Shown here in pieces: positions 41,924 through 51,183 of a stretch of 64,000 bases of DNA. The stretch comes from a phage. The stretch lies in assembly GCA_017864995.1 (NCBI GenBank), contig GCA_017864995.1_4097.1. One strand, written 5' to 3'. Positions within the stretch are counted from its first letter, which is position 1; each line of letters opens with the position of its first letter. The translations under genes were made by a program, and so were the position numbers. The notes under the pieces were generated by a model that was given only the letters and a program-made list of their open reading frames with translations, had not been told where the DNA came from and did no database searches.

Positions 41924-42262
41924 ATGGAACAACATTTTGAATTAATTAATAAGGTATCATTTTATGTAGTATCGTTAATTTGGGTGTATTACATGTTTTG
42001 TTACATTATTGCATTCTTCCGATACACAACCTTGTATCAACGCATATACTACGATGCACCCATTTCATTTATGATGTTCTGTGCATGTACGTGGGGGATA
42101 ATTGAAGCACTGGTATGTGGATATAGTACTGACGAATTAAATCTCGTATCGGGGTTGACATTACTAACAATTGCCATTATGATAGCTACTGTTCCGATAT
42201 TTTTGCTCTTTAAACTGCTTCATCGTATTGATGAGTGGCGTGATAAAATCCCTGAAAAGTAA
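41924..42262 (+). CDS. small polytopic membrane protein, basic-C-tail family (copy A1)
   Basis: 112 aa, 3 hydrophobic segments, C-terminus RIDEWRDKIPEK. Confidence 0.6.
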   Translation: MEQHFELINKVSFYVVSLIWVYYMFCYIIAFFRYTTLYQRIYYDAPISFMMFCACTWGIIEALVCGYSTDELNLVSGLTLLTIAIMIATVPIFLLFKLLHRIDEWRDKIPEK

Positions 42263-42271
42263 GGATTGATA

Positions 42272-42613
42272 ATGATTTTCTACACTAATGCTTTTGCTTA
42301 TGCTATTGCATCAATCTACATTGTGTACTTCTTATTTGGTGGAGTACTGTACTTCTTTAAGTACAAAACATTGTTTAACCGAATGTATCCAAATCATCCA
42401 ATTGTTGTAGTACTTTTGATTATTTCTGTTGCTCACATCATTGTAGAAACAATAATGGGTATTAGTGCAGTACATTACAGTCTAGGTACTATTGTGATTA
42501 TTACTATGATCATCGCATACATTTTAGTAATGGGTTTTGGTTTATTTGGAAATGTAGCAATGAAATTGTATAATCGAATCAAAACATTACGTGATAATCT
42601 ACCGGAGCGTTGA
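42272..42613 (+). CDS. small polytopic membrane protein, basic-C-tail family (copy A2)
   Basis: ATG 42272 with SD AAGGA; C-terminus RIKTLRDNLPER. Confidence 0.6.
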   Translation: MIFYTNAFAYAIASIYIVYFLFGGVLYFFKYKTLFNRMYPNHPIVVVLLIISVAHIIVETIMGISAVHYSLGTIVIITMIIAYILVMGFGLFGNVAMKLYNRIKTLRDNLPER

Positions 42614-42614
42614 G

Positions 42615-42959
42615 ATGTATAATTTAAATTTAATATCATATATCATAACAACACTGTTTACTTTCTATGCCTTTGTTGGTATACTCCTACTGTACTTTAA
42701 ATTTTATAAACTTTTTGATCGTTTTTATCCGTCATTAGAACATGAATTCTTATTAGTGATGTACATATGTCTAACGTTTATGTCTACATTTTTCACTGCA
42801 TCTGATGGTATCATTGGTATTAAAGCTGAAGAACCAAATGGGAGTACGCTTGTTGCCTTTATTCTGGTAGGATTTTTCAGTACTTATATTACCTTTATTT
42901 CAGGATGTACCGTGATTGATTATCTTGTGAAATTACGAGATAAAATGCCAAATCGATAG
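42615..42959 (+). CDS. small polytopic membrane protein, basic-C-tail family (copy A3)
   Basis: Track ORF 42591 trimmed to ATG 42615; C-terminus VKLRDKMPNR. Confidence 0.6.
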   Translation: MYNLNLISYIITTLFTFYAFVGILLLYFKFYKLFDRFYPSLEHEFLLVMYICLTFMSTFFTASDGIIGIKAEEPNGSTLVAFILVGFFSTYITFISGCTVIDYLVKLRDKMPNR

Positions 42960-42968
42960 GGGATTGCT

Positions 42969-43226
42969 ATGTTTGCATTGCGTAATAAAAATACAAAAGA
43001 GATTCTATGTATCTCAATAGTATGGGATTGTGCAGGAAGTGAAATGATTCTCGAAGAAGGTTCAGGTGATTGTGTTTATGTTGTTCAGGATCGTCGCGAA
43101 CTGGAATCATTACTTGACGAATTTAATGCTGGTGGAAATCCTAAAAGTACTCAATTCCCTGAGATCAGGAATCCAGCACCACCAGGCTCTTATGAAATTC
43201 TACAACTGTGGGAGATGGATAAGTAA
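42969..43226 (+). CDS. hypothetical protein
   Basis: 85 aa ORF; SD GGGGA upstream. Confidence 0.55.
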   Translation: MFALRNKNTKEILCISIVWDCAGSEMILEEGSGDCVYVVQDRRELESLLDEFNAGGNPKSTQFPEIRNPAPPGSYEILQLWEMDK

Positions 43227-43606
43227 TGCGTCAAATGCACAAAGTAACCGAGCTAAACAAGCGTCTGATTAAACAATCAATGTTTGAGGATAAAGAGTCT
43301 TACTATAACTTCAAACGTGCTGTAGAGGCTGCTATCCACATTCAGAAGCTTAAAGATAGTGGATGTATTATTCTCGAAAATGGTTCTGACGTTGTTACTG
43401 ATGACTTCAGTGTAGCGTTTGATGTTTCACCTGATGGTTCGCTATCAATGCCACGCTTAGGGACTGGTGACATGACTGTGTGGGTAGGTTTCACTATGGG
43501 GAATGTACCAGGCACGGTGTATGTAGATGATGCTGAGTTGAAAGAAAGCTTCAAAAACTTATCGCATCTTGAACCACAATACGCACATGAAATGAATTTA
43601 TTTTGA
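43226..43606 (+). CDS. hypothetical protein
   Basis: 126 aa ORF; TAATG overlap. Confidence 0.6.
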   Translation: MRQMHKVTELNKRLIKQSMFEDKESYYNFKRAVEAAIHIQKLKDSGCIILENGSDVVTDDFSVAFDVSPDGSLSMPRLGTGDMTVWVGFTMGNVPGTVYVDDAELKESFKNLSHLEPQYAHEMNLF

Positions 43607-43607
43607 G

Positions 43608-49082: not shown

Positions 49083-49429
49083 TGTTTGAATCTTATCTTG
49101 AGTTGTTAAAGAGTAGTTCTGTTGCACATTCAATTGCAGGGATTATTCTAACAGGTTATGTAACATTTTGGGTAGTTATGTTTCTAGGATGGTATTTTAA
49201 ACGACAATTCTATAAGCGTAATGGTGAAGATTTTATGAATTCTTTCATTAATCAATCGTTGTTTGCATCAACATTGATAGCATGTATTGTAGCAACACTC
49301 ACAGGAAAGGTACTGCCAGCATTCTCCGCAGTTTACGGTACATTGGGTATGATATGTGTAGTTTTTTACTTGACCATTAAACTTTGTTGTGTTATGATTG
49401 AACTTCGAAACAAGATACCGGAGGAATGA
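49082..49429 (+). CDS. small polytopic membrane protein, basic-C-tail family (copy B2)
   Basis: C-terminus ELRNKIPEE resembles copies A1-A3; TAATG overlap. Confidence 0.6.
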   Translation: MFESYLELLKSSSVAHSIAGIILTGYVTFWVVMFLGWYFKRQFYKRNGEDFMNSFINQSLFASTLIACIVATLTGKVLPAFSAVYGTLGMICVVFYLTIKLCCVMIELRNKIPEE

Positions 49430-49764
49430 TGGAATATTTTTTACACTTAATGCCGTGGTATATGAAAGTTAGTACTATGTACTATATTCTTAGTGCTGGA
49501 TTCTACTTTCTGATGTGGTTCTTCAAACGACCAATTTCAGTATTCATCTCTGATAACATGCTGCAATTAAAATTACACGCATGGTTTGGTATGGCGATGT
49601 TCATGCCTATTATTCACTACTCAATGATTAGTAGAGGGTTCCGTTCCAATGGTGAACCAATTATATTAGTATTCTATTGGGGTTCAACTATTGCATATGT
49701 AAGTTTGTTGTTGTTCCCAGTCGTTCATAAATTACGTGCTAAAGTTCCTGATGCGAGGTACTAA
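49426..49764 (+). CDS. small polytopic membrane protein, basic-C-tail family (copy B3)
   Basis: C-terminus HKLRAKVPDARY; ATGA overlap. Confidence 0.6.
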   Translation: MMEYFLHLMPWYMKVSTMYYILSAGFYFLMWFFKRPISVFISDNMLQLKLHAWFGMAMFMPIIHYSMISRGFRSNGEPIILVFYWGSTIAYVSLLLFPVVHKLRAKVPDARY

Positions 49765-50078
49765 TGGATATCGTAACATTGATTTACACGCTTTATTCAT
49801 TCTATTTTATTATGTGTTGGGTTGGATTTTTATTTGTACTGAAGATGTTTGATTATGTTGAAAAACAGATAAAAGAATTTTGTATTCCTTTTATTGGGTC
49901 AACCATTATTAGTATTACTTGCTTGTATTATTTGATATGTGATCCACCTGTTAATACAGCAATGATTGACTTCATGTTATTACCAACAACTGTTATTTTT
50001 TTATGTAGTCTGATGCCACCGATTAGCCGTGGACTAACTGAATTTAGACGCAATCAAAAGCGTAAACGAGGGATGTGA
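49764..50078 (+). CDS. small polytopic membrane protein, basic-C-tail family (copy B4)
   Basis: C-terminus TEFRRNQKRKRGM. Confidence 0.6.
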   Translation: MDIVTLIYTLYSFYFIMCWVGFLFVLKMFDYVEKQIKEFCIPFIGSTIISITCLYYLICDPPVNTAMIDFMLLPTTVIFLCSLMPPISRGLTEFRRNQKRKRGM

Positions 50079-50446
50079 TGGAAATTGCACTTATTATATT
50101 AACTTCTATGTTGTTTATTAGTACAATTGTTATTATTGGCAAGTTCTTCTGTGTATCCTTCTTGGAAACCGTATACGATGAAATTGCTGATGATTATGAA
50201 TTACATGCGGGATTTTTTACTACGTATTGGATTAGTTTATTACTACTTATCACTGTATGGATTTTACATATATTCAAATGGGGTATGGTAGATGGTGATC
50301 CAGTACTGGCAATTATCTGTGTAGTGTTTGGTCTACTCGGTGGTGCTGTCCATAATCTGATGGTAATTTGGCAAACCGTACAATATGTATTAGTTCCACA
50401 TTTTCAGAGAATGCACCAAAGCATCAAATACCGCAAACGAGGATAA
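50075..50446 (+). CDS. small polytopic membrane protein, basic-C-tail family (copy B5)
   Basis: C-terminus QSIKYRKRG; ATGA overlap. Confidence 0.6.
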   Translation: MMEIALIILTSMLFISTIVIIGKFFCVSFLETVYDEIADDYELHAGFFTTYWISLLLLITVWILHIFKWGMVDGDPVLAIICVVFGLLGGAVHNLMVIWQTVQYVLVPHFQRMHQSIKYRKRG

Positions 50447-50447
50447 C

Positions 50448-50810
50448 ATGAATAATATTGAATTATCTTTTATTGGTCAATTAATGGTAATGGCGTATAC
50501 ATTTATCTTCTCACTGAATGCATTCGTGTGCATTGGGAAGTACTTCCATAAGCGACCATTATCAAATATATATGATGTAATACAAAGGAGATATAGTCCA
50601 GCATATACTGTGTTGAGTACAGCATTCAATTTTGGTTTTATTCTAATGCTGGTTGCATTATTAACATCGAGTTCGAATTTTATAACATTTGGTATTATGG
50701 TATGTTCACTAACACTGTGTGTGGTTATTCTCTGTGCATCCGTTGAGTTGCTGGCGTGGATGTATCATAAGATTTCCGAAATCCATGAGCGTTTAGGCAC
50801 GAGGGACTAA
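50448..50810 (+). CDS. small polytopic membrane protein, basic-C-tail family (copy B6)
   Basis: 120 aa, 3 hydrophobic segments. Confidence 0.6.
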   Translation: MNNIELSFIGQLMVMAYTFIFSLNAFVCIGKYFHKRPLSNIYDVIQRRYSPAYTVLSTAFNFGFILMLVALLTSSSNFITFGIMVCSLTLCVVILCASVELLAWMYHKISEIHERLGTRD

Positions 50811-50811
50811 A

Positions 50812-51183
50812 ATGAGTTATCGTGAAATATTTTCAATCATTACTATTATTGTGTTTAGTTTAGGTTCTTTGATTTGGTTATTGTATTACTTCTGTGTAAC
50901 CCCAGTATATAATATGCTAAATTCAGTAAAATCTGACGTTGGTATTGTTTCTTTTATTATCTTCATGGCATATTATATGCTAAGTATCACAGGTTTGGTT
51001 TTGGTTGTTATCTTTGACCTTGGGCCGAATCAAGATGGTATGGAGATGTGGGAATTGATAACGATGTTTGCATGTATGATACCTGCATTTGGTGTATGTG
51101 CTGGTGTATTTTATGGGTTGTGTAAAGGTGTAAACTACTTAAAAAATATCCACAATACTATTCGTAAAAAACGTATGTTGTAA
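50812..51183 (+). CDS. small polytopic membrane protein, basic-C-tail family (copy B7)
   Basis: C-terminus NIHNTIRKKRML; last plus-strand gene before the convergent terminator. Confidence 0.6.
   Translation: MSYREIFSIITIIVFSLGSLIWLLYYFCVTPVYNMLNSVKSDVGIVSFIIFMAYYMLSITGLVLVVIFDLGPNQDGMEMWELITMFACMIPAFGVCAGVFYGLCKGVNYLKNIHNTIRKKRML

Follow-up and report, generated by a model that had tools for sequence, protein, structure and literature searches.

Ten paralogous small, predicted membrane proteins in two tandem blocks of an Asteriusvirus-type jumbo phage

The ten genes and their predicted products

The DNA analysed here (the window) is a stretch of 64,000 nucleotides (nt) of phage sequence which, judged by megablast identities of 98.3% to fEgEco12 and EC.P1 and of 88-91% to the 121Q/PBECO4 type, is that of an Asteriusvirus-type Escherichia coli jumbo phage of the 121Q/PBECO4 group. 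Jumbo phages of the RaK2/121Q type are candidate therapeutic phages in which over 80% of the genes lack a known function. Our subject is a set of ten small open reading frames (ORFs) on the plus strand of the window, three in block A (A1-A3, 41924-42959) and seven in block B (B1-B7, 48744-51183), which an initial annotation had described as paralogous small polytopic membrane proteins arranged in two tandem blocks of a phage accessory region. All ten were recovered at their coordinates in the ORF list of the window, with lengths of 104-123 amino acids (aa), and the description was borne out by these ORFs together with the topology predictions and profile tests reported below. In every relative record that we inspected the ten carry the label 'hypothetical protein'.

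A Shine-Dalgarno site precedes the start of each of the ten genes, and where a second start is available its spacing favours ATG 42272 for A2, ATG 42615 for A3, ATG 49429 for B3 and ATG 50078 for B5 (Table 1). With these favoured starts, neighbouring genes overlap by 1 nt at B1/B2 (TAATG), B2/B3 (TGATG), B3/B4 (TAATG) and B4/B5 (TGATG), while single-nucleotide spacers separate B5/B6, B6/B7 and A2/A3 and a spacer of 9 nt separates A1/A2. The genes thus abut or overlap as the initial annotation had it, but the 4-nt overlaps that it also listed depend on the less likely starts. Stop/start overlaps and 1-nt spacers make up a classic translational-coupling layout. Damaged copies occur in some records, B4 being split in two in 121Q and B2 truncated in SD-2_S15.

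Kyte-Doolittle profiles place three hydrophobic segments in each of the ten proteins. Lysine and arginine residues, summed over the set, number 4 in the N-terminal tail, 28 in loop 1, 4 in loop 2 and 44 in the C-terminal tail, and an N-out/C-in orientation is therefore predicted for the set by the positive-inside rule. Topology prediction on all ten agrees with the three hydrophobic segments and basic C-tail that had been noted initially, and we infer that the proteins insert in the E. coli inner membrane with the N-terminus out and the C-terminus in. For A1, AlphaFold2 run on a 37-sequence alignment predicts helices at residues 2-38, 45-66 and 74-108, with a predicted local distance difference test score (pLDDT) of 69 and a predicted template-modelling score (pTM) of 0.40.

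Table 1. Array genes and associated features in the window (HMM, hidden Markov model; NTPase, nucleoside triphosphatase).
Feature	Coordinates	Strand	Length	Remarks
A1	41924..42262	+	112 aa	phrog_19285 at 6.5e-49; family HMM 85.0 bits
A2	42272..42613	+	113 aa	alternative TTG start 42266; AAGGA Shine-Dalgarno 6 nt 5' of ATG 42272
A3	42615..42959	+	114 aa	alternative GTG start 42591; GGAG before ATG 42615, which lies 1 nt past the A2 stop
B1	48744..49082	+	112 aa	phrog_19454; hhalign to A1, A2 and B2 above all reversed controls
B2	49082..49429	+	115 aa	phrog_19046, weaker matches to the phrogs of B1 and B3; most cross-family links
B3	49429..49764	+	111 aa	alternative ATG 49426; phrog_27396
B4	49764..50078	+	104 aa	phrog_33258; most divergent member
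B5	50078..50446	+	122 aa	alternative GTG 50075; phrog_26405
B6	50448..50810	+	120 aa	leave-one-out HMM 21.1 bits, reached by 0/1000 shuffles
B7	50812..51183	+	123 aa	phrog_27618; leave-one-out HMM 32.6 bits
P-loop NTPase, T4 NrdC.10/11-like	47906..48676	+	256 aa	Pfam AAA/STAND models, phrog_1250; not a family member
Hairpin-promoter cassette	41150..41185	+		heads the unit containing block A; TTGACT-18-TATAAT, TG extension, 11/12
Hairpin-promoter cassette	47842..47877	+		heads NTPase and block B
Second, weaker promoter-like site	48686..48714	+		directly 5' of B1; TTGACT-17-TACTAT; internal GTACTA/TAGTAC inverted repeat
Bidirectional terminator-like hairpin	51190..51216	.		12-bp stem, T-runs on both strands; between B7 and the convergent RCC1-like gene

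Homology, range and evolution of the family

Plain BLASTP connects only A1, A2 and A3 (A1-A2 at 5e-13, A2-A3 at 7e-8), and PHROGs assigns the window proteins to seven families of 'unknown function' (E 1e-46 to 1e-60) with weak cross-matches. We therefore relied on profiles, built for each paralog from its orthologs in fEgEco12, 121Q, ph0011, SD-2_S15, JNE01 and A4, and aligned all 45 profile pairs using hhalign, each with a reversed-profile control. Real pairs scored 23.5 on average compared with 12.5 for the controls, and 14 of them exceeded the best reversed control (22.8), which joined nine of the ten proteins in one graph; probabilities reached 94% for B2-B3, 81% for B5-B7, 71% for B5-B6 and 68% for A1-B2. 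B4 was borderline in this first comparison and in the leave-one-out tests. When its profile was deepened with positional orthologs from the Klebsiella phage KP13-7 (65.9 bits to the B4 HMM), the metagenomic contig L010 (31.8 bits) and an Erwinia phage, B4 aligned to B7 at 92.5%, to B5 at 83.6% and to the rest of the family at 93.4% (E 2.5e-7 over 92 collinear columns, reversed control 15.9 bits), the highest reversed control in these tests being 16.7 bits.

With HMMs trained on all but one paralog group, the window protein of the omitted group outscored 999-1000 of 1000 shuffles of matched composition, and the family HMM selected exactly the ten array ORFs among the 360 ORFs of the window, at 74.9-87.1 bits with a runner-up at 7.3 bits, leaving out an unrelated 83-aa membrane ORF at 44454-44705. 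A profile search of 1.84 billion representatives returned 21 clusters only, all of 89-127 aa and matched over nearly the full profile, and the profile is therefore not simply attracting hydrophobic proteins; a broader profile of 48 sequences found 19 matches only among 5.8 billion proteins. Because the reversed, shuffled and leave-one-out controls were all exceeded, the ten proteins are true paralogs of one family. The initial annotation had named a lack of detectable homology beyond hydrophobicity as what would speak against it; BLASTP, hhalign, leave-one-out HMMs and the family HMM each find such homology. At the level of sequence profiles, seven PHROGs that look unrelated in that database (19285, 19454, 19046, 27396, 33258, 26405 and 27618) are hence shown to merge into one family.

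The family signature, computed on 97 non-identical members, is strongest at the cytoplasmic end of the first transmembrane (TM) segment, where (W/K/Y)(F/Y)F(K/C/R) includes a Phe present in 95 of 96 sequences. Further conserved columns are a Tyr in loop 1, a Gly past TM2 and the C-tail L-(R/H)-x-(K/N)-(I/L)-(P/K/R)-x-(R/K), in which R/H occupies its position in 96 of 97 members; across the family, TM2, loop 2 and TM3 are poor in information. Identity inside ortholog groups is 76% in TM1, 75% in loop 1, 61% in TM2 and 60% in TM3. All ten window proteins fit a family definition of about 100-130 aa, three TM segments, the motif (W/Y)(F/Y)F(K/R/C) where TM1 ends and the C-tail (L)(R/H)x(K/N)(I/L)(P/K). 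The ending L-R-x-K-(I/V)-P-E, initially attributed to several members, appears as L-R-x-K-(I/V/L/M)-P in half of them (A1, A2, A3, B2 and B3), and the remaining five end in a relaxed basic tail, (R/H)-x-x-(I/L/Q).

Scans for known families returned little. Pfam gave zero matches to the ten proteins at E<=1, and NCBIfam and PADLOC gave nothing above threshold, the best PADLOC match being a sub-threshold 2TM effector at E 0.068. Among PDB sequences, hmmsearch with the family profile reached E 0.014 at best, for an unrelated V-ATPase assembly protein, and Foldseek found nothing with an E of 2 or below in PDB and BFVD for the AlphaFold2 model; with three helices at pLDDT 69, this model is in any event a weak query. 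Our literature searches found no paper mentioning these proteins. By its sequence criteria, then, this is a real, well-defined and lineage-restricted family that we did not find described in the searched literature.

Using tblastn, B1, B2 and B7 were found in Asteriusvirus of Escherichia and Salmonella, B1 and B7 also in Klebsiella Alcyoneusvirus, including RaK2 and K64-1, and nowhere else; block B was present in all 36 Asteriusvirus records matched. A single Erwinia member used as tblastn query matched itself only, and an IMG/VR search for related loci with B3 orthologs gave 121Q and RaK2 only. A homolog in phi92, hinted at by a 'Phi92_gp233' note in the ph0011 record, was dropped when that phage proved to be missing from the tblastn results for B1, B2 and B7. 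Synteny combined with family HMM scans, which covered the 64-kb window and the syntenic stretches of relatives, extends the range to Klebsiella RaK2-type, Erwinia and Salmonella jumbo phages. There are 8 HMM-positive members in KP13-7, 10 in the Erwinia phage Hallingskeid, about 9 in L010 (a 324-kb contig), 2 clear and 2 weak ones in the Salmonella phage Munch, 8 in A4, 10 in the window and 11 each in 121Q, ph0011 and JNE01. In 121Q the array genes are gp207-209 and gp224-232. KP13-7 keeps positional orthologs of B1, B3, B4, B5 and B7, that of B3 at 40% identity.

In the window (block B), 121Q, ph0011, JNE01, A4, KP13-7, Hallingskeid, Munch and L010, the main array is preceded by a P-loop NTPase gene and runs towards convergent RCC1-like genes; block A of the window sits apart from this layout. 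We considered a specific partnership between NTPase and array and dropped it, given that NTPase homologs occur in 1310 phage records, mostly T4-like phages of about 170 kb, that PA5oct-type phages carry the NTPase without the array (the one non-RaK2 example inspected being Pseudomonas phage Ettore), and that NTPase alleles (96% vs 59%) do not co-segregate with array alleles. The linkage is therefore read as inherited synteny.

Two observations concern the neighbours of the array. Asteriusvirus NTPases fall into two alleles about 59% identical to each other, and the allele of JNE01 and ph0011 is 86-87% identical to that of Hallingskeid, which points to exchange between phages of different host genera. 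Moreover, a conserved soluble ORF of 42 aa (MKPEQWIIDDMR...LLQWYVKV..SKE) lies in or beside the array in Klebsiella, Erwinia and Salmonella phages and the metagenomic contig (L012 10076-10204, L014 6850-6978, L019 7281-7409 and L010 9731-9856). It is missing from the window and from other Asteriusviruses, and there is a faint likeness between its C-terminus and the N-terminus of B3 (LLPWYMKV).

Comparison with JNE01 and A4 gave only 26-65% identity for the array proteins, against 93-100% at the protein level for neighbouring genes. For B7, three allele classes are found in GenBank phages, at 96-99%, about 64% and about 39% identity. High-identity blastn blocks shared with JNE01, A4, 121Q and ph0011 break at 43608, about 45770, about 47840, 48678 and 53077, and these mosaic breakpoints coincide with promoter or terminator elements; the arrays therefore appear to be exchanged as modules. 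B1 and B4 have undergone lineage-specific duplication, and block A ranges from one copy (A4) to four.

Promoters, terminators and probable expression class

Near-consensus sigma-70 promoters (>=11/12) number 35 on the plus strand of the window and none on the minus strand. All except one of the 35 fall in the region of plus-strand genes upstream of 48 kb. A 36-nt cassette, AAAGGGTTGACTTCGGTCGGCCCTTTTTGCTATAAT, occurs three times (41150-41185, 45774-45809 and 47842-47877; none expected by chance) and joins a GC hairpin with a T-run to a sigma-70 promoter whose -35 element lies inside the stem. Of these copies, one heads the unit containing block A and another the NTPase and block B. The promoter at the latter position is kept in 121Q, JNE01, Munch, KP13-7, Hallingskeid and L010, and the weaker site before B1 has counterparts in 121Q (TTGACA-17-TACTAT) and JNE01 (TTGACA-17-TACAAT), so that both promoter positions, 5' of the NTPase and 5' of the first array gene, are retained in relatives whose sequences have diverged. 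At the distal end, the curated annotation of Munch places a terminator at the position equivalent to the hairpin that follows B7.

In T4-type phages, modules are exchanged at promoter-stem-loop (PeSL) cassettes (PMC2839356, PMC4122927). The hairpin-plus-early-promoter cassettes of the window and the mosaic breakpoints that coincide with them match this concept; the likeness is one of layout and concerns the flanks of the arrays, not the proteins, and is seen here in a RaK2-like jumbo phage. As a separate observation, a palindrome of the CAGTAC...GTACTG type recurs at 48693-48718, 51190-51216 and 53078-53102. Its first copy sits in the -35/-10 spacer of the promoter that precedes B1, as it does in 121Q and JNE01, and the other two belong to bidirectional terminator hairpins; the palindrome may be a common site for protein binding, or the hairpins may simply have converged.

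The T4-type late motif TATAAATA is found twice in the 64 kb (37679-37686 and 38921-38928), compared with 11.9 copies expected, and before neither array block. Its copy at 38921 lies 22 nt 5' of a 503-aa gene at 38950 that is annotated as 'virion structural protein' in fEgEco12, and thus marks a late gene embedded in an early-looking region. According to the CBB paper, RaK2-like phages have an early host-takeover region recognisable by RpoD-like promoters and short ORFs, their late genes are marked by ATAAATA, and the signal-arrest-release (SAR) endolysin is 121Q gp532, far from the array genes gp207-232 (PMC5259590). The 40 kb upstream in fEgEco12 contain a sigma factor, an HslV-like gene, HNH endonucleases and short ORFs, and no lysis genes; in annotated relatives, no endolysin or spanin lies within about 50 kb. 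In 121Q, phAPEC6 and Munch, block A is closely preceded by a T7 gp0.7-like kinase gene. The virion proteome of phAPEC6 lists gp003-gp010 and next gp035c, and does not include the array proteins gp012c-017c and gp028c-029c (PMC7247149). Sigma-70 promoters, the lack of a late promoter and of nearby lysis genes, and absence from the virion proteome together suggest that the arrays are transcribed early by the host sigma-70 RNA polymerase and are non-structural, the timing being taken from the promoter motifs. The family is now described by a signature and a phylogenetic range, together with its topology as predicted and its probable class of expression.

Possible functions and further features of the window

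The initial annotation proposed superinfection exclusion or membrane-level defence evasion, and the sequence evidence is consistent with that proposal. Sigma-70 promoters at conserved positions, the lack of a T4-type late promoter before the arrays, absence from the phAPEC6 virion proteome and the divergence of array versions between phages with near-identical flanks speak for it. The closest analogy is offered by T4 Imm, a small early protein of the inner membrane with a periplasmic N-terminus, which binds the tape-measure protein and blocks genome entry in the manner of colicin immunity proteins. With Imm and with HK97 gp15 the array proteins share their size class and the predicted inner-membrane location with periplasmic N-terminus; they differ in sequence and in the helix arrangement described for Imm, which is moreover a single gene, whereas the arrays hold 7-11 paralogs with signature motifs of their own. 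Immunity proteins to pore-forming colicins are likewise small polytopic inner-membrane proteins; each neutralises a specific membrane-inserting helical domain, and specificity variants exist. The arrays differ from them in lacking homology and a toxin gene in the neighbourhood, and in being phage-encoded and multiple.

By this analogy, the array might confer multi-specificity, Imm-like protection on the envelope, a tentative reading to which we give a probability of roughly 0.3. The proteins would be made early and inserted in the E. coli inner membrane N-out/C-in, with the aromatic-basic motif at the end of TM1 and the basic C-terminal helix facing the cytoplasm and the TM2-loop-TM3 hairpin being the more variable part. 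Each paralog would bind and neutralise a different membrane-inserting protein within the inner membrane, candidate targets being tape-measure or ejection proteins of superinfecting phages, pore-forming toxins and transmembrane effectors of host defence. The envelope of the infected cell would in this way be guarded while the 350-kb genome replicates, and whole array versions would be swapped between phages as modules. If true, a slow-replicating giant phage would shield its host cell from many competitors or defences acting at the membrane simultaneously, and the arrays would be a natural collection of specificity variants with which to examine recognition between small membrane proteins and partners that insert in the membrane.

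Several points weigh against an Imm-like shield. In the databases searched above, neither sequence nor fold connects the array proteins with Imm, Sp, Sie, colicin-immunity proteins or any family of defence or anti-defence proteins, and the Imm-like gene of Hallingskeid is a separate one that scores 2.2 bits to the family HMM. To our knowledge, exclusion functions take one or two genes, not seven to ten. The gap in conservation between TM1 and TM2/TM3 is modest, and the expression timing has been read from promoter motifs alone. Furthermore, the ratio of nonsynonymous to synonymous substitution rates (dN/dS) is 0.04-0.48, with dS of up to 2.3, and no gene-wide positive selection was seen in this analysis. 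These values indicate old functional alleles under purifying selection which do not evolve freely; they look less compatible with rapid arms-race turnover than the initial annotation implied and, as far as substitution patterns go, speak for long-term conserved, non-redundant roles. In keeping with such roles, each paralog holds its rank in the array as a positional ortholog across Escherichia, Klebsiella and Erwinia phages.

The ORFs might be artefacts of reading frame or decaying pseudogenes, and isolated copies are indeed frameshifted (121Q B4, SD-2_S15 B2), but the conservation pattern refutes this: the genes have Shine-Dalgarno sites, dN/dS values of 0.04-0.48, orthologs in four phage genera and family-specific conserved residues. 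A role in lysis timing, as holins or antiholins, has more to recommend it at first sight. Class I holins of the lambda S105 type measure about 100-120 aa and span the membrane three times in N-out/C-in orientation, with a charged basic C-tail, all of which the array proteins share (the topology by prediction), and in B3 and B5 two start codons even stand side by side in frame. These dual starts enclose no basic residue, however, and the arrays depart from holins in homology (no holin family was matched in Pfam, PHROGs or NCBIfam), in the absence of adjoining lysis genes (no endolysin or spanin over about 50 kb around, the SAR endolysin being far off; PMC5259590), in having early-type sigma-70 promoters instead of the TATAAATA late motif, and in copy number, ten copies being unprecedented. 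We therefore consider a holin-type function very improbable.

Purifying selection and conserved rank would also suit a reading in which the paralogs are subunits of one hetero-oligomeric inner-membrane assembly that serves the phage's own cycle, be it a channel, scaffold or anchor for entry, replication or segregation of the 350-kb genome, or a means of stabilising the membrane. Tight translational coupling would supply the paralogs in fixed ratios, and stop/start overlaps or 1-nt spacers occur at nearly every junction. The retention of five block B orthologs (B1, B3, B4, B5 and B7) in KP13-7 and of arrays in the Erwinia phage and L010, the presence of block B in all 36 Asteriusvirus records matched, the cytoplasmic-face motif common to all members and the conserved synteny with the P-loop NTPase point in the same direction. 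A fixed assembly sits less well with a copy number that varies from about 2-4 in Munch through 8 in A4 and 10 in the window to 11 in 121Q, ph0011 and JNE01, with a block A reduced to one copy in A4, and with lineage-specific duplications; the NTPase, which occurs in about 1300 phages and in Ettore without an array, does not co-segregate with array alleles, and array proteins were not detected in virions. Such an assembly is in our view unlikely, and its narrower form, a hetero-oligomeric inner-membrane machine specific to RaK2-like jumbo phages whose versions co-evolve as sets and are exchanged as cassettes, is less likely still. A heteromeric machine, if true, would add something new to the cell biology of jumbo phages.

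Small membrane proteins of bacteria act as regulators of larger partner proteins, and each paralog could by analogy be a host-takeover modulator that binds a different host inner-membrane protein, such as a transporter, a sensor kinase, a protease such as FtsH, or a secretion or division component, and thereby rewires envelope physiology. The position in an early region beside takeover-type genes (the T7 gp0.7-like kinase, and in fEgEco12 the sigma factor and HslV-like gene) would suit this idea, as would the predicted inner-membrane topology and the long retention of distinct paralogs under purifying selection. Conserved E. coli inner-membrane proteins, on the other hand, poorly explain why arrays of 26-65% identity sit on near-identical backbones in phages of the same host species, and PHROGs, Pfam and NCBIfam revealed no similarity to known regulators, so that modulators of this kind would seem rather improbable. 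The same discrete array classes on near-identical backbones make the function of the arrays, whether an Imm-like shield or one of its alternatives, experimentally tractable.

Other parts of the window offer several minor observations. Past the array, the minus strand carries at least nine large ORFs of 249-462 aa between 51221 and 63995, the first of which is, like its counterparts in relatives, RCC1/WD40_RLD-like ('DNA condensation protein'); several RCC1/WD40_RLD-like proteins are included in the phAPEC6 virion proteome. Within 45838-47836, an endonuclease V (denV-like) ORF has 147 aa in the window vs 171 aa in fEgEco12 and is followed by a 484-aa endonuclease-like ORF (phrog_681, CapR-like domain) that is missing from fEgEco12. 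The latter is probably a mobile endonuclease insertion by which the 3' end of denV was clipped. Upstream of block A, an 83-aa ORF at 40533-40784 is labelled 'lytic conversion lipoprotein' in fEgEco12, a label that we found unsupported, as the ORF matches an unknown-function PHROG only and has no canonical lipobox by eye. Its 3' end is overlapped by a 124-aa ORF (40771-41145) with a long, low-complexity tail rich in K, D and E (KADKDSKDKKDKADKSDKKENKKKAKDDKDKK). Six tRNA genes (Ser-tga, Ser-gct, Met, Asn and two Thr-tgt) cluster on the plus strand at 10055-14127, and the GC skew changes sign at about 52 kb, the same place at which gene orientation flips.

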